Shown in pieces: positions 8,015-56,714 of a stretch of 64,000 nt of DNA. The stretch lies in contig CAWANH010000028.1 in the NCBI GenBank assembly GCA_963783375.1, forward strand, positions 54,103 to 118,102. The letters run 5' to 3'. Made by a program: the position numbers and the translations under genes. Under the pieces are notes generated by a model. The model saw only the letters and a list, made by a program, of their open reading frames with translations. It had not been told where the DNA came from and made no database searches. The stretch is from Candidatus Eiseniibacteriota bacterium. Lineage in GTDB: Bacteria; Eisenbacteria; RBG-16-71-46; JABDJR01. Position 1 is the first letter of the stretch; each line of letters starts with the position of its first letter.

Positions 8015-9226
8015 ATGACACGTATGAGAATGCTCCTGCCGCTCTTCGGGCTGGCCGTCGTGGCCGCCGCGATTCCCGCCGCGTCGAGCGCGGCGACCTC
8101 GAAGTACGCGAATTTCGACGAGGCCCTCGCCGCGGGGGGCGACCTGCAGAAACCCGTCCTGATCGACTTCTTCACCGAGTGGTGAGGCTCCTGTAAAGCG
8201 TTCGCCCGGGCGGCGGACTCCGACAGCAACATCCAGGATGCCTTGAGCGGGTTCGTGTTCCATCCCGTCGACGCCGAGAAGGGTGAGGGCGTGGAACTGG
8301 CCGAGAAGTACGGAATCATCGGCTACCCCACCTACGTCGTGGTCAACGCCGATGGAACCACCCTCGACCGGTGGGTCGGCTACGAGAAGAAGGCGTGGAT
8401 CGCCTCCGCGGACCAGGCCGTCGCCGATCCGACCACCATCGACGAGAAGATCGCGCGGTACCAGGCCCACCCCACCGCGGCCGACGCGGTCCGGCTCGCC
8501 GGCTACCACGACTCCAAGGGGGAGTATCCGGACGCGGTGAAGCTCTACCGCGCCGCCGCCCACCTCGATCCCTCCTCCGTCGACGCCTACCGGATGTCGA
8601 TCTTCAAGTCGACGTTCTACGGGGTGCGGGAGGAGAATTTCTCCGTGGACGACCTCCGGGCCGCGGGGGACGCGGTGTTCGCGGAGAAGGAGCCCAAGCC
8701 GGGGGACCTCCTCGACGTGGCGATGCTCATGGGTCTCGCCGCTTCGGGCTCCGATGGGAAGCTCGACCCCATTCCCTACGTGAAGCGGGCGATCGAGGAG
8801 ACGGATGGATCCACCGATCCCGGGGTGGTGAGAGCACGGACCCAACTTCTTCCCGACTACGCCCTCCACGTCCTGAAGGACTCAGAGAAGGCCGTGGCCT
8901 ACGAGAAGGCGTCCATGCCGGAGAAGTGGACGGAGGATCCGGGCCTGCTCAACGGCTTCGCCTGGTGGTGCTTCGAGAACATGGTGAATCTCGAGGAGGC
9001 GGAGAACCTGGCCCGGAAGGCGGTCGACCTGGCCGCTCCGGGCCGGGAGAAGGCGATGATCCTCGACACCCTGGCGGAGATCTGCAACGCCCGGGGCGAC
9101 TGCGATCAGGCGCTCTCGCTCAGCCGGCAGGCGTCCCAGGAAGACCCCAAGAGCAAGCACTATCCGGCCCAGATCGAACGCTTCCAGAAACTGTCCGAGC
9201 AGAAAGCGAACGGAGAGGGACGCTGA
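8015..9226 (+). CDS. Exported thioredoxin-fold (Thioredoxin_7-like) + TPR-like protein with in-frame UGA at 8183-8185; candidate selenoprotein (W-U-G-S-C)
   Basis: ATG 8015 has an AGAGGA RBS and a signal peptide (MTRMRMLLPLFGLAVVAAAIPAASSAA). The track ORFs ending at 8185 and starting at 8243 share one frame, separated only by TGA. The joined sequence reads LIDFFTEW-U-GSCKAF...VELAEKYGIIGYPTYVVVNADG. Confidence 0.7.
8200..8218 (+). promoter_or_regulatory. Candidate bacterial SECIS hairpin downstream of UGA 8183-8185
   Basis: 7-bp stem GTTCGCC / GGCGGAC (one G-U pair) with loop CGGGC (8207-8211). The stem starts 15 nt after the UGA. Confidence 0.4.
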
Positions 9227-20174: not shown

Positions 20175-21548
20175 ATGAAACACGTCGCCCTTTTCCTGAC
20201 CCTGGCCCTGGTCCTGGCCGCCTGCGGGTCCGGCCCCCGGGAGAAGGCGCCCGCCTCCGGCGACGGCGCCCCCGCGGAAACCACGGCCAAGGCCGGAAAG
20301 CTGACCCTCCCCTTTCTGGCCGACGACTACGCCGGCGCCCTGAGCCAGGCCCGGGAGCGGAAGCTCCCCATCTTCATCGAGACCTGGGCTCCCTGGTGAC
20401 ACACCTGTCGCTCGATGAAGGCCTTCGTCTTTACCGATGAGGCCCTCGAGAGCGAAGCCGGGCGGTTCGTCTGGCTCGAGCTGAACACGGAACGCGCGGA
20501 GAACGCCCCGGTGGTGGCCGCCCTCCACGTCCAGGCCCTCCCTACCTATTACATCGTGGACCCGGAGAGCGAGCGCATCCTGGCCCGCCGGCTGGGCGGC
20601 GCCACCGTGGCCCAGCTCAAGGGCTTCCTGGACTCGGGCTACGACACCTTCGCCGGCACCGGACTCGCCCCCGCCGATCGCCACGTGGCGCGCGCCGAAT
20701 CGCTCTACGCCGCGGGGGACATGCCCGCCGCGATCGCCGCCTACCGCGTCGCCCTGGACGAGGGCGGCCCGGAATGGTCCGGCTATCCCATGACCATGGA
20801 AGCCCTCCTCTACGCGCTCCAGATGCACGAGGAGTTCGAGCCCGCGGCGATCCTCGCCCGGGAGAGCTATCCCCGCCTCCGCCGCACCGCCTCCGCGGCC
20901 AACGTGGCCGGGGTGGGGCTCGACAGCGCCCTGGAGCTGGCGTCCGACGACCCCGATCGGGCCGGGCTCATCCACGACCTCATGACCGACGCGGAGGAGG
21001 TCACCTCCGACCGCTCGATCCCCGTGGCCGCCGACGACCGGTCCTCGGTGTTCGGCTCGCTCATCTCGGCCCAGGAAAGCCTCGGGGATTCCGCGGCGGC
21101 GCGCGCGACCACCGAGGCCTGGGCGGAATTCCTGGAGGGCGAGGCGGCCCGGGCCCGGACCCCCGACGAACGCGCGGTGTTCGACTCCCACCGCCTGAGC
21201 GCCTACCTGGAGCTGGGCGAGCCCGAGCGAGCGATTCCCATGCTCCGGCGATCCGAGCGCGACCTCCCCGGCGACTACAACCCACCGGCCCGGCTCGCCG
21301 TCGCCTACCTCCGGATGGGCCGGCTCGACGACGCCCTGAGCGCCTCGGATCGCGCCCTGGCCAAGGCCTACGGGCCGCGAAAGCTCCGCATCCTCCTCAA
21401 CCGGGCGGACATCCTGGTCGCGAAAGAGGACCCGGCCGGGGCCCGCAGGACCCTGGAGGACGCCCTCGACCTGGCCCGGGGCATGCCGCCGGAGCAGCGA
21501 TCGAAGTCGATGATCGCCCGGATCGAAAAGCGCATCGCGGGGACATGA
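20175..21548 (+). CDS. Thioredoxin-fold + TPR-like lipoprotein with in-frame UGA at 20397-20399; candidate selenoprotein (W-U-H-T-C)
   Basis: ATG 20175 with a lipoprotein signal (LALVLAACGSG). Track ORFs ending at 20399 and starting at 20415 share one frame. The joined sequence reads [25 protein letters not shown]...VQALPTYYIVDPES, followed by a helical repeat region. Confidence 0.7.
20414..20429 (+). promoter_or_regulatory. Candidate bacterial SECIS hairpin downstream of UGA 20397-20399
   Basis: 6-bp stem GATGAA / TTCGTC (one G-U pair) with loop GGCC (20420-20423). The stem starts 15 nt after the UGA, the same spacing as at 8200. Confidence 0.4.
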
Positions 21549-23029
21549 CCTTGCCCGCCCCGCGCGCGCTTCGGCCGACGACCGTTCCCGGGGCGATCGC
21601 CGTCACCGCCCTCGCCCTCTTCGTCTTCGGGATCGCGCCGGCCCGCGCCGGCGGCATCGTCATCGACGGCCGGTTCGACGACTGGGCGGGGACCGCGCCC
21701 GCCTACGAACGCGCGCACGCGGAGACCCCGCCGGCGGGCGAACGGGCCGATGCGCGGACGGTGATCGAAGCGGTGTGGGTGTCATCCGACCGCGACCGCC
21801 TGGCCGTCCGCTTCCGGCTGAGCCGCGCGATCTCCCTCCAGAAGGACAACACTCTCGTCCTGGATCTGGACACCGATCTGTCCGGGTCGACCGGCTTTCT
21901 CCCCGATGGCGCCGACCTCCGCTGGACCTTCGCCGGGAGCGAGGGGCGGGCCGTCGTACTCGGGGTTCCGGTCCGGCTCACCCCCGCCGCGGTGGGCCTT
22001 CGCCAGGGACCCACCGTCACCTCCCGCGAGTTCGAGGTCTCCTTCGACCGGCGCGCCTCGGTGGCCGGGGCCCCGATCCTCGCCGGGGACTCGGTGACCG
22101 TGGTGTTGCGGGACCAGGGCCCTTCGCCGTTCTCGACCGGCAGGCTCACCGCCGCGCTCTCCGATCGCCTCCCCGAGGCCGGCCCGCCGCCCTCCTTCGC
22201 CCGCCGGGACCCCACCGACCTCCGTCTCCTCACCTACAACGTCCTCTTCGACGGCTGCTTCGACCGCCCCGAGCCCTTCCGGCGGATCCTCCGGGCCCTC
22301 GACCCCGACGTCGTCTGCTTCCAGGAGATCTACAACCACTCCCCCGAAGAGGTGCGGGAGTGGATGGAACAGACGCTACCCGGAATCCGGTGGATGATCG
22401 CGGGAGACGGCGGCCAGGGGATCGTGGCGAGCCGCTACCCGGTCCGGGACTCCGGACCCCTGGGGGCGAGGCGCCGGGGCGGCTGGGCGCGGATCGGGAC
22501 CCCCGAAGGCGACCTCCTGGTGGTCAATCCCCACCCCCCCTGCTGCAACGACGACGCCGGCCGGGAACGGGAGTTCGACGCCATGGCCGCCTGGATCCGG
22601 GACGGGCGCCGCGCCGGGCGCCTGTCCGCGAACATCCCCCTGGTGATCGCGGGGGACATGAACCTGGTCGGGGACGCCCGCCAGCTGGCCACCCTGCTCA
22701 CCGGGACCATCGTGGACACCGCGGCCTTCGGCCCGGGGGCCGCTCCCGACGGGGACGGAACCCCCCTCGAGGACGCCGTCCCCCTCCACCTCACCGGGCG
22801 CGAGTCCTATACCTGGCGAAACGACCGCGGGGCCTTCGCTCCCGGCCGGCTCGACTACATCGTCTTCTCGGACAGCGTGCTCGGGCTGGCCCGGTCGTTC
22901 GTGCTGTGGACCCCGGATCTTCCGCCCGCGTTTCTCGAGGCGTCCGGGCTCGAGCCCATGGACACCGCGATCGCCTCGGACCACCTGCCGGTGGTGGCCG
23001 ACTTCTACTTCCCCGGCTCCTCCCGCTGA
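21545..23029 (+). CDS. Exported endonuclease/exonuclease/phosphatase (EEP) family protein
   Basis: ATG 21545 overlaps the previous stop (ATGA). It has a signal/TM segment. The C-terminal half has LRLLTYNV, VVCFQEI, AGDMNLVGD and IASDHLPVVADF (EEP motifs). Confidence 0.85.
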   Translation: MTLPAPRALRPTTVPGAIAVTALALFVFGIAPARAGGIVIDGRFDDWAGTAPAYERAHAETPPAGERADARTVIEAVWVSSDRDRLAVRFRLSRAISLQKDNTLVLDLDTDLSGSTGFLPDGADLRWTFAGSEGRAVVLGVPVRLTPAAVGLRQGPTVTSREFEVSFDRRASVAGAPILAGDSVTVVLRDQGPSPFSTGRLTAALSDRLPEAGPPPSFARRDPTDLRLLTYNVLFDGCFDRPEPFRRILRALDPDVVCFQEIYNHSPEEVREWMEQTLPGIRWMIAGDGGQGIVASRYPVRDSGPLGARRRGGWARIGTPEGDLLVVNPHPPCCNDDAGREREFDAMAAWIRDGRRAGRLSANIPLVIAGDMNLVGDARQLATLLTGTIVDTAAFGPGAAPDGDGTPLEDAVPLHLTGRESYTWRNDRGAFAPGRLDYIVFSDSVLGLARSFVLWTPDLPPAFLEASGLEPMDTAIASDHLPVVADFYFPGSSR

Positions 23030-23670
23030 GCCAGGTTCACCAGCAGGAGGCGCAGGATCCGACGGGCGTCGTCCGGCCCCACCCGGTCCACCGCCTCGGC
23101 CAGGGCCCTTAGCGTCCGGGGATCCCGGTCCCCTTCCGGCTCCAACCCCGCCTCGGTTTGGAAGTCCCGGATCGCCCGGTCCGCGCCCTCATCCCACTCC
23201 CCGGTGCCGATGTCCGTCGGGTGGCCGAGCGCGGAGAGGACCGCCTTCAGGAGCACCCGCTCCTCGTAGCTGAACCGGTCCGCGTCGAACCGCGGGGAGG
23301 ACACGACGATCTGGGAAGGGTCGCGGACCTCGATCTGGGGTTTCCCCCGGTAGGTCTCGACGGTTCCGGTGACGCAGACTTCCCGCTGGGCGAACATCCG
23401 GTGGGGCGGGCTTTCGAACTTGCGGTTGTTGTCCCCCCAGATCACCACGGTGAACGTCTGGTCGGGATAGGGCCGGCCGAAGTTGAGGAAGGTGGGCTCC
23501 CCCTTCAGGCGGTCGAAATGAGCGGCCCCGGCCACCGTGCCGCAGACCGTGATCGCCTCGCCCACGTGCTTCGAGGCCTCGGCGGCGGGCACCGGCTCCG
23601 CGCCCCGGACCGGGCTGGCGAGGACGAGTAGGAGCGCGGCGGACAGCGAAACCCGGACGGATCGAAACAT
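23005..23670 (-). CDS. Exported OB-fold-like + peptidoglycan-binding-like domain protein
   Basis: Starts at ATG 23670 (MFRSVRVSLSAALLLVLASPVRG, a signal). ITVCGTVAGA...VCVTGTVETYRGKPQIEV is OB-like. The C-terminal GEWDEGADRAIRDFQTEAGLEPEGDRDPRTLRAL resembles PG_binding_1. Its 3' end overlaps the EEP gene by 25 nt (convergent). Confidence 0.65.
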   Translation of the reverse strand: MFRSVRVSLSAALLLVLASPVRGAEPVPAAEASKHVGEAITVCGTVAGAAHFDRLKGEPTFLNFGRPYPDQTFTVVIWGDNNRKFESPPHRMFAQREVCVTGTVETYRGKPQIEVRDPSQIVVSSPRFDADRFSYEERVLLKAVLSALGHPTDIGTGEWDEGADRAIRDFQTEAGLEPEGDRDPRTLRALAEAVDRVGPDDARRILRLLLVNLAQREEPGK

Positions 23671-23742
23671 CAGAACTCCTTCACCTCGGGCACTTGTCCC
23701 GGCGCCGATACCGTTCATATGGGCGGCCCCGCTCCGGTCCGG

Positions 23743-24360
23743 TCAGTTCATGGTCGCGGAGAAGCGCAGGGCCAGGCTCGTTCCGGTCCAGCTCGCGTCG
23801 ATCCCCTTCTCGGGGAAGGAGTGGTAGCCGAAAGCCAGCGCCACCCCGAGTCCCCAGGAGTCCCCCACCCACCACTCCTTGCCCAGCGACAGGTCGGTGA
23901 TGGGACCGTCATCGGTCTCTCCGCCCGGGCCGTTGGTCGGATCCACGGTCAGGGATCCCCAGCCTACCGAACCGGAGAGGTACACGTTGGCGGGCATGAA
24001 ATAGTAGGTGAGGCCCCCGGCGACCCCGGCCATGCTCACATCTCCGTTGAGTTGGCCCGAGCCGACCCCTTTCCACTCCACGTCGGGATCGCTGGCCACC
24101 CAGCTCAACAAGGTACCGTGAAGGGCGAGGTTCGGGGAGACCATCCCGCCGATGGCGATGTTCAGGTCGCCGGTGGGGCCGCTGACCTCGAAGCTGGCCC
24201 CCTGGTAGTCGATCGACGTCGTGGCGTAGCCCCCTCCGGCGGAGAGCCGGAGGAAGAAGCCGTCGTGGGTGCGGGGGGCGCCGGCGGCGGCCGCCGCCGA
24301 CCAGAGGACGCACAGGAGCACCACCGAGCCGATGATGAGCGCGAAGCGATGGACGGACAT
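23743..24360 (-). CDS. Small outer-membrane beta-barrel protein
   Basis: ATG 24360 follows a GAGGAGG RBS. A signal peptide is followed by alternating Gly/aromatic beta-strand patterns, and the C-terminus is LALRFSATMN. Confidence 0.7.
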   Translation of the reverse strand: MSVHRFALIIGSVVLLCVLWSAAAAAGAPRTHDGFFLRLSAGGGYATTSIDYQGASFEVSGPTGDLNIAIGGMVSPNLALHGTLLSWVASDPDVEWKGVGSGQLNGDVSMAGVAGGLTYYFMPANVYLSGSVGWGSLTVDPTNGPGGETDDGPITDLSLGKEWWVGDSWGLGVALAFGYHSFPEKGIDASWTGTSLALRFSATMN

Positions 24361-24592
24361 GGGTCGTTCCTCCTCATCGATGAAGTGCCGCATGGCTGGA
24401 CTCATCGGACAGGGAAGCGGCGCCGGACTGTCCCCGGGAAGAGCGGGCACGGGGGCGTGCCATCCCCATGCTTAAATCGAATCGGGAAGAAGTGCAATCC
24501 AATTCGGAGGCCCCTCACCAGGAAGGGATCGAGCCACCCGACGGTTGAAGCGGGGACGGTGGGGCCCGGGGCGCCGGCCCGCCCCGGGGGGC

Positions 24593-25456
24593 TCAGACCG
24601 CGGGAACCAGCGTCCCGTCCTCGATGAGCCCGGAGACCACGTCGGGGGCCTCCGACGCATCCGCCCCCAGCTTCGTGATCTCACCGACCAGGGCATCGAA
24701 ATCCCGGGGGGCACCGGCAAAGGCCAGGAACTCGTAGAGGCCCCGGGTGATCTCCGTGGCCCCGGCGGCGAACCGCACGCGGGGACCGTCGTCCCGGACG
24801 AGTTCCAGGAGAAGGAACTCGGGCCGCGCCGGGTCGAGCCGGGTACCCGGCATGGACGCCGGGGAATCGAGCACGGCGCGGGCCAGGTCCCCGGTGGAGC
24901 CGGCGAGCGCCACGTGGATCGCCTCGTGGAGGTCGGCGGTCCGGCGGGGAGCGGTGTGAAGCGCCTTGTCCGTGGAGAGCCGCCAGGCCGAGCCCTCCCC
25001 GGGGTCCTCCGGAGACGGCGGGGCGTCCCGGTGAAGCCGGACGATCGCCTGCTCCAGCCGGGCCAGCGCGGTCACCCTTCGATCGGGCACGCTTCCCGCG
25101 GCGGCCTGATCGGCCAGGTAATCCCCGAAGGCCAGGGCCATCGATCCCCGCTCCTGGACCGAAGCGTGGAAGGGGGCGGAGCCGAAGAAGGCGAGGAGCG
25201 GGCCGGGACCTTCGGCCGAGCGCACGGCCAGCGCCCCCGCGGCCGGGTACTGCTGGAGAAGAATGTTGAGCGAGCGCACCGGGCGCTCGGAGTCGACGCG
25301 CCAGGCGCGCGGATCCGGCCCGAGAAGCCACCCCCGCTCCTCGGCGGTGAGATCGATCCCCGCCAGCGCTCCGTCGGGATCCCCCAGCACCCGCCGGGCG
25401 AACCCCGGGTCGTAGAGCATCCGCACCATGACCCGCTGGAGCGCGACGTGGCTCAT
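24593..25456 (-). CDS. Partner protein of the MNIO gene (occupies the MbnC/TglI/DUF2063 position); family uncertain
   Basis: ATG 25456 overlaps the MNIO stop (ATGA). The N-terminus LQRVMVRMLYDPGFARRVLGDPDGALAGIDLTAEERGWLLGPD resembles LigA/NHLP-type helical domains. Gene order matches known MNIO-partner pairs. Confidence 0.65.
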   Translation of the reverse strand: MSHVALQRVMVRMLYDPGFARRVLGDPDGALAGIDLTAEERGWLLGPDPRAWRVDSERPVRSLNILLQQYPAAGALAVRSAEGPGPLLAFFGSAPFHASVQERGSMALAFGDYLADQAAAGSVPDRRVTALARLEQAIVRLHRDAPPSPEDPGEGSAWRLSTDKALHTAPRRTADLHEAIHVALAGSTGDLARAVLDSPASMPGTRLDPARPEFLLLELVRDDGPRVRFAAGATEITRGLYEFLAFAGAPRDFDALVGEITKLGADASEAPDVVSGLIEDGTLVPAV

Positions 25457-26340
25457 CCGGCCCCCGTTCCCAGGAGCGGTGATCCGGAGAGCACCGAGGC
25501 GATCCGCGCGAAGCCCGGAAGGGTCTCGGGAAGGGGGTTTCGCTCGCACTCGAACACCACCGCCCGGAGGTTCGGGCAGCGGGGCACCAGGTGTTCGAAG
25601 ATCCTCCAGGTCTCGGCCAGCACCTCGGGGGTGTGGTCGTCTTCCACGTACTCCCATCCGTCGTGGGACCGGCCGCTCCCCCCCGCCACGTGCATCTCCA
25701 CGATTCGCTCCATGGGAAACCCGTCCAGGCCGGTGAGCGGCGCGTGCCCGTGGCTCTTCTGGTAGATGGCCAGGTGGGCGCAGTCGAGGAGCATCCCGGT
25801 GTCGGCGCGCCCGATCGCCCGGGCGAAGAAGTCCAGGAGATGGAGGTTCCCCAGGAACACCGCCCCGGGCGGGTTTTCGGGGAACACCTCGTAGCCCACC
25901 GACTCGCGCAGCCGGATCACGCCCTCGGCGATCGCCTCCGCCGAGGCCTCGGAGAGGATCGGGGGAAGGAGCAGCATGTGCCCAGGCTCGCGCCCCCCGA
26001 AATGCCACATCCCGGCATCCCCGCAGAACCAGGCCGGCCGGAGGGCGGCGGCCAGGGAACGAACCTCGTCCAGCCAGGCCGGCTCGAAGTCCTCGGGATC
26101 GTCCAGGTTCAGGTCGAGGAAGTGGTAGGTGGCGGGAAGCCCCAGCCCGGCCCACTCCCGGGCGTGTCGATCGAGCCCGGAGAGCGTCTCCACCCCGACC
26201 TCCAGGAAGCCGGCGTAGGCCGGGTGGAGATGCCGAAGCTCGGGCACGTCGAGACCGCGGGGGGAATCTCCCGCCCCGTATTCGGTAGATACTCCAAGAC
26301 CCAACCGGGGAAGCGCCAGGACACGCTGACTGAAGTCCAT
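25453..26340 (-). CDS. DUF692 family protein (multinuclear non-heme iron oxidase, MNIO; MbnB/TglH/BufB-like), divergent member
   Basis: Track ORF. The layout is DUF692-like: LGLGVSTEY, FLEVGVE, YHFLDLNL, LLLPPILSE, FPENPPG, MLLDCAHLAIY, VEMHVAGG, EDDHTPEV, LRAVVFECE. Confidence 0.8.
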   Translation of the reverse strand: MDFSQRVLALPRLGLGVSTEYGAGDSPRGLDVPELRHLHPAYAGFLEVGVETLSGLDRHAREWAGLGLPATYHFLDLNLDDPEDFEPAWLDEVRSLAAALRPAWFCGDAGMWHFGGREPGHMLLLPPILSEASAEAIAEGVIRLRESVGYEVFPENPPGAVFLGNLHLLDFFARAIGRADTGMLLDCAHLAIYQKSHGHAPLTGLDGFPMERIVEMHVAGGSGRSHDGWEYVEDDHTPEVLAETWRIFEHLVPRCPNLRAVVFECERNPLPETLPGFARIASVLSGSPLLGTGAG

Positions 26341-55231: not shown

Positions 55232-56714
55232 CTACCGCAGCGCGGTCGCGGTCTCCCGGAGGAGCGCCCAGGTGAGGGCGACGTCCTCGGGGGTGGTGCG
55301 GAGGTTCCCCACCGCGAGCCGGAGGCCGAACCGGCCCCGGACCACCACGTGGGAGAGAAACGCCTGCCCGGAGGCGTTCACCGCCTCCAGGAGGGCCCGG
55401 TTGTGGGCCTCGATCGCCGGCTCTTCCGGGATGAGGTCCCCGGGGCCGGCATCCTCCGCGCGGGCCGGGGTGACCACGGCCGGGGGGATGTGGCGGAAGA
55501 GCACGGTGCTCATGGGGGCGGGGGCCAGCCGCTCCCAGTCCGAGGCCTCGTCCACCCACCCGGCGAAGGTCTGCGCCATCTCCACCGCGGCGCGGATCCG
55601 CTCCGCGACGCCCTCGGTCCCGAAGGTCCGAAGCACCATCCAGAGCTTGAGCGCCCGGAATCGCCGCCCCAGGGCCGGCCCGTAGTCCATGAGGTTCCGG
55701 GCCGTGCCCTGTTCGGGGGTCATGAGATAGGGCGGCACCAGGGAGAAGGCCTCGCGGATCACCTCGGGGCGCCGGCAGTAGAGCGCGCTGAGATCGATCG
55801 GCACGAAGAGCCACTTGTGGGGGTTCACCACGAAGCTGTCGGCGCGGTCGCATCCCTCCAGTACCCAGCGGTACTCGGGAACCGCCGCCATGGCTCCGCC
55901 GTAGGCCCCGTCCACGTGGAGCCAGATCCCCTCGCGCTGGCAAAGGTCGGCGATGGCGGGGATGGGGTCGATGCTGGTGGTGCTGGTGGTGCCCACCGTG
56001 GCCGAGACCGCCATCGGAACCCAACCGGCGCGGCGGTCCTCGGCCACCGCCCGGGTGAGCGCCGCCACGTCCATCCGGAACTCCGGGTCGGTGGGGATCC
56101 TCCGCACCCCGTCCTGGCCGAGCCCCAGGGTGAGGGCCGCCTTCTCCACCGAGCTGTGGGCCTCCTCGCTGGTGTAGAGCCGGAGCCGGGGGCCGCCGGC
56201 CAGCCCGCGCTCCCGCACCGCACCTCCGGTCGCGGCCTGGCGCGCCGCGGCGAGAGCCACCAGGGTGGAAACGCTCGCGGTGTCGTTGATGTGCCCGTCG
56301 AAGGTGTCGGGGAGCCCCAGCATCCGGCGAAGCCAGCCCAGGGCGGTCACTTCAAGTTCGGTGGCCGCGGGGGAGGTCCGCCAGAGCATGGCGTTGACGT
56401 TCAGGGCGGCGGTGAGCGCCTCTCCGAGAATCCCGGGCGCGCTTCCGGTGATCGAGAAGTAGGCGAAGAACCGAGGGTGGTTCCAGTGGGTGATGCCGGG
56501 AACCAGGATCTCCCGGAAGTCGCGGAGGGTCTCGTCCGAGGGGGACGGGACGGGCCGGAGGCTCCGCGGGAAGGGCCGCGGCGATCTCCCCGGGTCGGGT
56601 GCGGGCCAGGACCGGGTAGTCCCGGATGCGCTCCAGGTAGTCGGCGATCCAGTCCACCACCTCACGGCCGTGGCGGCGAAACTCCTCGGGACTCAGATCG
56701 CCCTGGCTCTCCAT
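55232..56714 (-). pseudogene. Pyridoxal-dependent (group II, aromatic-L-amino-acid-type) decarboxylase, split by a frameshift at G-run 56540-56544
   Basis: The N-terminal 50-odd codons, with a GGAGGAG RBS and ATG 56714 (MESQGDLSPEEFRRHGREVVDWIADYLERIRDYPV...), are in one frame. The remainder (…DETLRDFREILVPGITHWNHPRFFAYF…NPHKW…) is in the frame of ORF 55232..56665. Confidence 0.8.

Follow-up and report, generated by a model that had tools for sequence, protein, structure and literature searches.

The 64-kb stretch of Candidatus Eiseniibacteriota DNA analysed here (the window) carries, at 20175-21548, a gene whose frame contains an in-frame TGA at the place of a catalytic cysteine. The frame opens at ATG 20175, passes through TGA 20397-20399 and stays open until TGA 21546-21548; gene callers split it into two open reading frames (ORFs), 20175-20399 and 20415-21548. 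An earlier note, made from the sequence alone, had pointed out that ORFs 20175-20396 and 20400-21548 share one frame across the TGA and had proposed a candidate selenoprotein. The shared frame was confirmed on translation, the motif around the TGA being WAPW-U-HTC in the joined product, and one gene with a UGA is strongly supported by the comparative evidence (TGA in 148 of 164 related loci, far more than chance would give). The gene has the following features.

20175..21548, plus strand: complete candidate selenoprotein gene, 457 codons including the predicted selenocysteine (Sec) Sec74, in one frame and unbroken in Cys-type homologues
20175..20225, plus strand: signal peptide with lipobox L-A-A-C (Cys17, codon 20223-20225), predicted from the sequence
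20322..20564, plus strand: Thioredoxin_7 domain (Pfam), residues 50-130, with the cis-Pro loop A-L-P-T-Y (Pro123 at 20541-20543)
20397..20399, plus strand: UGA predicted to be read as selenocysteine (U74), the attacking residue of U-H-T-C, from the TGA/Cys counts in 164 loci
20406..20408, plus strand: putative resolving Cys77 of U-x-x-C, invariant across the alignments
20667..21545, plus strand: TPR-like superhelix of about nine helical hairpins (Pfam TPR, AlphaFold2 (AF2) model, Foldseek)

The G+C content of third codon positions (GC3) is 0.93 in the 60 codons upstream of TGA 20397-20399 and 0.88 downstream, so both flanks look coding. The joined sequence was searched against 5.8 billion proteins, and the matches listed fell into two length classes. 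Short homologues (377-395 amino acids, 82% query cover) always start at the Met found five codons past the UGA. Long homologues (435-495 amino acids) retain the thioredoxin part and read WAPWCHTC. When aligned, the long forms (WAPWCHTCRSM) and the window (WAPW-TGA-HTCRSM) have identical spacing, in agreement with the earlier statement that the stop sits at the first Cys of W-C-x-x-C. A gene boundary at this position in homologues, which the note had named as a refuting observation, was not seen, as the Cys forms are continuous through the UGA position. Moreover, two contigs encoding short forms (72% and 82% identity, in differing neighbourhoods) share with the window both the in-frame TGA and the peptide upstream of it. 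At E <= 1e-30 the family comprises 296 clusters; among the 149 best 50%-identity representatives, 51 start exactly at the post-UGA Met and 65 carry an N-terminal domain with CHTC, CHSC or CHAC.

The codon at this position was read in two collections of relatives. With one genome scanned for each GTDB species, 536 relatives were found, and in the best 80 of these loci the codon is TGA in 73, TGC in 6 and TGT in 1. An independent scan of JGI metagenomes gave 80 loci with TGA in 71 and TGC/TGT in 9, despite having been seeded with an alignment of Cys forms only. Over all 164 related loci of soil bacteria (labelled L001, L004 and so on), TGA is present in 148, TGC in 14 and TGT in 2; TAA and TAG are never found, which is not expected of an ordinary terminator. 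The predicted Sec share is thus about 90% of the genome and metagenome loci; among the 116 informative representatives at 50% identity it is about 44%. The carriers belong to Candidatus Eisenbacteria (phylum Eiseniibacteriota), Krumholzibacteriia, Thermoanaerobaculia and other Acidobacteriota, and Vicinamibacteria. The closest relative, L004, is 95% identical to the window protein and the next, at about 70%, is an Eisenbacteria metagenome-assembled genome (MAG); identity falls as low as 47% among the best 80 genome loci.

Purifying selection was found on either side of the UGA. In 135 distinct UGA forms, the 30 codons upstream have entropies of 0.68, 0.41 and 1.04 by codon position, a coding periodicity, and their consensus peptide is LPFIADDYPRALAEARARKVPIFIEAWAPW, with the conserved pattern LPFIADDYxxALAxARxxxxPIFxExWAPW. 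No locus contains an indel between the UGA and the following Met. In the window, the only in-frame TGAs within a redox motif are 20397-20399 and 8183-8185, the latter in a second gene discussed below; a scan for further in-frame TGA redox motifs across all related loci returned noise only.

The sequence that follows the UGA can form two hairpins, which are mutually exclusive.

20404..20457, plus strand: long hairpin, candidate selenocysteine insertion sequence (SECIS), nucleotides 8-61 counted from the U of the UGA, supported by fold, pairing and recoding tests
20414..20429, plus strand: alternative mini-hairpin GAUGAA-GGCC-UUCGUC, with its loop GGCC at 20420-20423, 20 nucleotides past the UGA, fitting the bacterial SECIS model

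In the window, the pairs of the long hairpin span 20408-20455, starting 11 nucleotides past the UGA, with the apical loop UUUACC at 20430-20435 and a minimum free energy (MFE) of -26.3 kcal/mol (z -4.2 against dinucleotide shuffles). An extended hairpin at approximately nucleotides 8-61, with an apical loop near nucleotides 34-39, is found in all 72 distinct genome UGA forms. RNAalifold returned no consensus structure on these 72 sequences because the register of the lower stem varies among clades, and pairing was assessed instead by explicit pair counts of a 22-pair structure and by recoding tests. In the 72 UGA forms, 82% of the cells of the 22-pair structure are paired, compared with 33-52% when the partners are slid, and two-sided changes occur in 24 cells against 13.3 +/- 2.6 in shuffles. 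GC-to-CG compensations were observed at pair 9-60 (8 sequences) and pair 18-53 (9 sequences), and also at pair 27-45.

Since the hairpin region encodes nearly invariant residues, each sequence was also set against synonymous versions of itself, generated with its own codon usage. For the UGA forms (n = 119), the observed MFE is -30.2 and the recoded MFE -23.1 (z -2.06); for the Cys forms (n = 13) the corresponding values are -23.4 and -22.2 (z -0.37). The two groups differ with an optimistic Mann-Whitney p of 1.8e-7, and the genome and JGI sets agree when taken separately. Third-position entropy is 0.68 in the 90 nucleotides after the UGA and 1.04 in the 90 nucleotides before it (columns 1-72 of the alignment correspond to 20397-20468), which is consistent with an RNA-level constraint on top of coding. 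The long hairpin is therefore selected beyond coding constraints, and in the UGA forms only.

The published bacterial SECIS model calls for a loop of 3-9 nucleotides, a stem of 4-16 bp, a spacing of 16-37 nucleotides, an MFE <= -7.5 kcal/mol and a G in the first two loop positions (PMC13188914). With its loop about 30 nucleotides past the UGA and an MFE of -26 to -30 kcal/mol, the long hairpin follows every rule except that of the loop G. The mini-hairpin (GAUGAR-GGCC-UUCGUC, loop at nucleotides 24-27) follows all of them in 45 of the 72 UGA forms, but it is not diagnostic because several Cys forms encode it too, and covariation favours the long hairpin. Rfam scans of the regions after both UGAs (20397 and 8183) matched no SECIS family.

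Taken with the domain evidence below, we consider it highly probable (about 0.88) that 20175-21548 encodes an exported selenoprotein as one gene, its UGA being read as Sec by way of the mRNA hairpin and SelA, SelB, SelC and SelD. The ribosome would read UGA 20397-20399 as Sec under the guidance of a bacterial-type SECIS lying inside the coding sequence, and the SelA/SelB/SelC/SelD machinery would be encoded elsewhere in the genome. In this organism the protein would be a lipoprotein, acting outside the cytoplasm as a thiol-disulfide (selenenylsulfide) oxidoreductase. Sec74, in place of the nucleophilic first Cys, would attack disulfides or sulfenates of extracytoplasmic substrates; Cys77 would resolve the selenenylsulfide, and a membrane electron carrier of the DsbD/CcdA type would re-reduce the protein. 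The TPR superhelix would most likely hold the substrate or a partner, its groove selecting the substrate. We infer Sec insertion at UGA 20397-20399, the redox direction, the electron donor and the substrate from the sequence.

Several observations weigh against this interpretation. All of the support for it is at the DNA level (the frame, UGA conservation, Sec/Cys pairs, the hairpin and the domains). None of selA, selB, selD or a tRNA-Sec was found in the window or in approximately 1 Mb of related loci: ARAGORN and Rfam detected no tRNA or RNA family in the window, ARAGORN no tRNA-Sec in 60 related loci, and tblastn with E. coli SelA, SelB and SelD no match in the window and 83 loci. Pfam annotation of about 33 window genes revealed neither sel genes nor DsbD/CcdA. 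The Sec-decoding trait of the organism is predicted from the window and related loci, and no report linking Eisenbacteria or Thermoanaerobaculia with selenocysteine was found in the open literature. As for the hairpin, the p-value of the recoding comparison is optimistic because the sequences are phylogenetically related; the conserved V-F-T-D in GC-rich codons explains part of the structure, with recoded controls still at about -23 kcal/mol; and no G stands in the first two positions of the long hairpin's apical loop (UUCAC[G/C]).

Two candidates for translation components were examined and set aside. In L044 (4703-4799, minus strand), 1.3 kb ahead of the family gene, ARAGORN predicted a 97-nucleotide 'tRNA-Arg(CCG)'; Rfam gives no tRNA match for it, it folds no better than shuffled sequence, and it is a probable false positive in GC-rich DNA. 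The window gene 55232-56665 (minus strand) encodes a pyridoxal phosphate-dependent decarboxylase (Pyridoxal_deC, E 3e-91) with a weak secondary match to SepSecS (E 3e-6), a similarity that is generic to fold-type-I enzymes and does not indicate Sec machinery.

A very improbable alternative is that the UGA is recoded to an amino acid other than Sec, either to Cys by a selC*/selB*-like tRNA-Cys(UCA) or through suppression by an allo-tRNA. In selC*/selB* systems, a tRNA-Sec-like tRNA-Cys(UCA) delivers Cys in a SECIS/SelB-like manner (Mukai et al., PMC5389517), and a conserved UGA, a hairpin and Cys homologues fit Sec or Cys insertion alike. Allo-tRNAs have been reported in Acidobacteria, and both they and selC* systems are known in related soil and anaerobic lineages (PMC5389517). 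However, selC* is known from Firmicutes, Thermodesulfobacteria, Nitrospirae and Proteobacteria, and the available selC* genomes also encoded a complete selA/selB/selC/selD set (PMC5389517). Furthermore, the UGA is kept with a costly hairpin in about 90% of the lineages, with no evident gain over a TGC that is one mutation away and has arisen repeatedly (at least 24 switches).

Public annotation treats the UGA as a true stop, with one gene for a secreted lipopeptide of 73 residues and another, from ATG 20415, for a cytoplasmic TPR protein; this reading is very improbable. All database entries for UGA forms do start at that Met and none contains a U, the Met is invariant, and the Sec machinery was not seen in the window and related loci. 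Such a split would, however, break up the thioredoxin fold, leaving strand 1 in one product and the active-site helix in the other; the Cys forms are continuous with the same spacing, no locus has an indel between the stop and the Met, all 148 stops are TGA with not one TAA or TAG, and the hairpin is selected only where the UGA is present. As the Cys forms have the invariant Met too, it is a structural residue.

A pseudogene, or a sequencing or assembly error for the TGC or TGT codon that lies one base away from TGA, has next to no probability, given the purifying selection on both sides and the same TGA in 148 independent loci. These come from many assemblies, technologies and projects, which bears out the earlier judgement that sequencing error was very unlikely; in addition, the fragment product of the second gene (8015-9226) was recovered, identical in sequence, from three other assemblies or sequencing runs. 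A reassigned code, with UGA as a sense codon for Trp or Gly (codes 4 and 25), can be dismissed just as firmly, because most high-GC3 genes in the window, 20175-21548 included, terminate in TGA, each of the only two redox-motif TGAs found in frame in the 64 kb occupies the place of the first Cys in a CxxC, and homologues have Cys at the UGA position and not Trp or Gly.

The selenoprotein reading is also in keeping with the predicted architecture of the product. The earlier description of an export signal, a thioredoxin fold and long helical repeats was borne out by Pfam and by the AF2 model of a Cys homologue, P0012. With C in place of the stop, the joined product matches Thioredoxin_7 (40.2 bits, cut-off 27) and Thioredoxin (26.5 bits, cut-off 23.5), as well as TPR_12 and TPR_16. 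A profile search placed 2KUC (E 2e-16) nearest among solved thioredoxin domains, along with the DsbD C-terminal domain (E 3e-11), and the cis-Pro Pro123 of the A-L-P-T motif is invariant in the family alignment. In the P0012 model (pLDDT 92.8, pTM 0.88), a thioredoxin fold leads into some nine helical hairpins, and the CHTC (Cys63-Cys66, by alignment numbering) lies in the loop just ahead of helix 65-74. A Foldseek search against the PDB retrieved generic TPR superhelices only (such as LGN, CTPR and OGT), with no functional lead. The TPR region nevertheless carries family-specific invariant motifs (DDRS, FDSHRLSAY, DYNPPARLA, AYGPRK and QRS), whose conservation suggests a specific binding site and not a bare scaffold.

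All family members have a predicted signal peptide. The N-terminus of the window protein, MKHVALFLTLALVLAAC, carries the lipobox reported in the earlier note, and this part of the claim stands. When the pattern [LVI][ASTVI][GAS]C was tested at the end of the signal peptide, however, LAAC or LVAC lipoboxes were found only in the clade of the window (L001, L003, L004, L006 and L010); they are not family-wide, and in most members the signal peptide is of the ordinary signal-peptidase-I type.

Among selenoproteins, the most frequent type has Sec in place of the first Cys of a CxxC in a thioredoxin fold. The UxxC thioredoxin/thiol:disulfide interchange selenoproteins (PF00085 and PF13098; PMC13188914) share with it the thioredoxin fold, Sec at the first Cys, Sec/Cys pairs among orthologues and a SECIS inside the coding sequence after the UGA. 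In contrast to them, it combines a Thioredoxin_7 (DsbD-gamma-like) domain with approximately 300 residues of TPR, an export signal and a UGA majority. The Trx7/PDZ selenoprotein (NF041199; PMC13188914) also joins a Thioredoxin_7-type domain with Sec in its redox motif to a protein-binding module, but it has CxxU and PDZ where the protein of gene 20175 has UxxC and TPR, and NF041199 is not among the NCBIfam matches. The closest solved domains, DsbD gamma and 2KUC (a putative disulphide isomerase), are periplasmic reductant carriers. Membership of DsbD itself was rejected, as only the gamma-like domain matches and the NCBIfam DsbD model scores 31.8 bits against a cut-off of 330; the protein lacks the membrane and N-terminal domains of DsbD, and it has a U/C-H-T-C active site and an added TPR part.

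E. coli CnoX/YbbN (b0492) likewise consists of an N-terminal thioredoxin fold and a C-terminal TPR part, and JGI labels the Cys forms 'thioredoxin-like negative regulator of GroEL'. CnoX is cytoplasmic, however, with a much shorter TPR part. Membership was rejected here too: hhalign gave 40% probability over 63 columns of the thioredoxin domain only, and the family carries signal peptides. In view of this partial, thioredoxin-only alignment and of its export, the protein of gene 20175 is regarded as an analogue of CnoX and not as a member.

No NCBIfam model, the curated selenoprotein models included, scored above its cut-off (for example, TsoB, NF045694, 24.4 bits against 805). A 2026 inventory lists 119 prokaryotic selenoprotein families (PMC13188914). 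Among these 119 there is no Thioredoxin_7 plus TPR entry with UxxC; the groundwater MAG survey that the inventory cites (Deng et al.) was outside this comparison. Retrieved public entries for the UGA forms are truncated proteins that start at the post-UGA Met and are named 'TPR repeat protein' or 'hypothetical protein', and the letter U is absent from every database sequence retrieved for the family. What makes the family stand out is how abundant it is, the exported TPR architecture, the range of its carrier lineages and the systematic error in its annotation. We put forward only tentatively, at a little short of an even chance, the broader proposal that this is a widespread unlisted family with a Sec majority and a non-standard SECIS, that Eiseniibacteriota, Krumholzibacteriia and Thermoanaerobaculia, three groups without a published record of Sec use that we could find, are routine Sec users, and that they have at least two exported seleno-thioredoxin-TPR proteins.

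If true, these proteins would be 'periplasmic seleno-chaperedoxins' of Candidatus Eiseniibacteriota, Krumholzibacteriia and Thermoanaerobaculia. The split annotation loses the catalytic thioredoxin half and hides the selenium dependence, and recognising the family would correct such entries. The prokaryotic selenoproteome would gain one family, or two with gene 8015. The family would also suggest that abundant but uncultured phyla of the soil use selenium, and it would provide a simple marker of the Sec trait for their MAGs. Moreover, an exported reductase domain joined to a large peptide-binding scaffold would be a concrete candidate for envelope protein repair.

Sec and Cys forms are interleaved in a neighbour-joining tree of 188 family members, which requires at least 24 changes of state. 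When this tree, built from simple distances without bootstrap, is rooted at its midpoint, Fitch parsimony places Sec at the root, and Sec may, as a weak inference, be the ancestral state of the family. Repeated switches between Sec and Cys, at least 24 in 188 sequences, would constitute a natural experiment on when Sec pays its cost.

The second in-frame TGA of the window lies in another gene of similar architecture.

8015..9226, plus strand: second thioredoxin-TPR gene, candidate selenoprotein, with UGA 8183-8185 in W-U-G-S-C (the sequence reads FTEW*GSC)

The note had described a UGA at the same catalytic residue in this gene, and FTEW*GSC was indeed found there. Gene 8015 resembles gene 20175 in its signal peptide, its W-U-x-x-C thioredoxin fold, its C-terminal TPR part and its Sec/Cys pairs. 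It differs in its U-G-S-C motif, in having no lipobox and in its shorter, different hairpin (GUUCGCC-CGGGC-GGCGGAC), which starts at about nucleotide 18 counted from the U of UGA 8183-8185 and, with its loop CGGGC, fits the bacterial SECIS model of PMC13188914. Orthologues at 55% and 47% identity have an in-frame TGA at W-U-G-S/P-C. Fragments of 313-342 amino acids and Cys forms of 385-418 amino acids were found in this family, and approximately half of the database homologues are post-UGA fragments. The two genes had been called paralogous: a distant relationship of the thioredoxin domains holds (20% identity over 79 residues, E 7e-8), but the term overstates it. From their sequences, genes 8015 and 20175 belong to two separate, distantly related families, each with its own Sec/Cys pairs, and the two families are found on the same contigs in relatives. 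L169 (ENA ERZ25039549 contig_24514, 2,386,780 bp) encodes a gene 8015 fragment product identical to that of the window. Its flanking genes are the same as well, and the contig probably represents the same organism, or one almost identical to it, in an independent assembly.

Downstream, gene 20175 overlaps its neighbour.

21545..23029, plus strand: exported EEP gene (Exo_endo_phos, Pfam), whose start overlaps the stop of the selenoprotein gene

Both the ATGA overlap at 21545-21548 and the Exo_endo_phos identity of this gene, as given in the earlier note, were confirmed. The suggestion that the two products form a redox/hydrolase pair found no support, as the EEP gene adjoins the family gene only in the window and in the 95% identical L004, and in neighbour clustering over 80 loci no family occurs in more than 12, leaving no conserved operon partner. 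The EEP protein has an N-terminal region of about 230 residues with no Pfam match. In L003, the M28 peptidase gene comes directly after the selenoprotein gene, which gives the block 21545-26340 the look of a lineage-specific insertion. The genes around it in the window are of an ordinary chromosomal kind: aconitase, an amino-acid permease, MscS, a class A penicillin-binding protein, a SpoIIE-type phosphatase, an M28 peptidase, a GDSL lipase, an aminoacyl-tRNA synthetase, RND efflux and pyruvate dehydrogenase. Finally, 25453-26340 (minus strand) is a gene of the MbnB/TglH/ChrH family, which modifies precursors of ribosomally synthesised and post-translationally modified peptides (Pfam E 3e-20); with small ORFs that lack annotation beside it, it may be the sign of a peptide-modification cluster.

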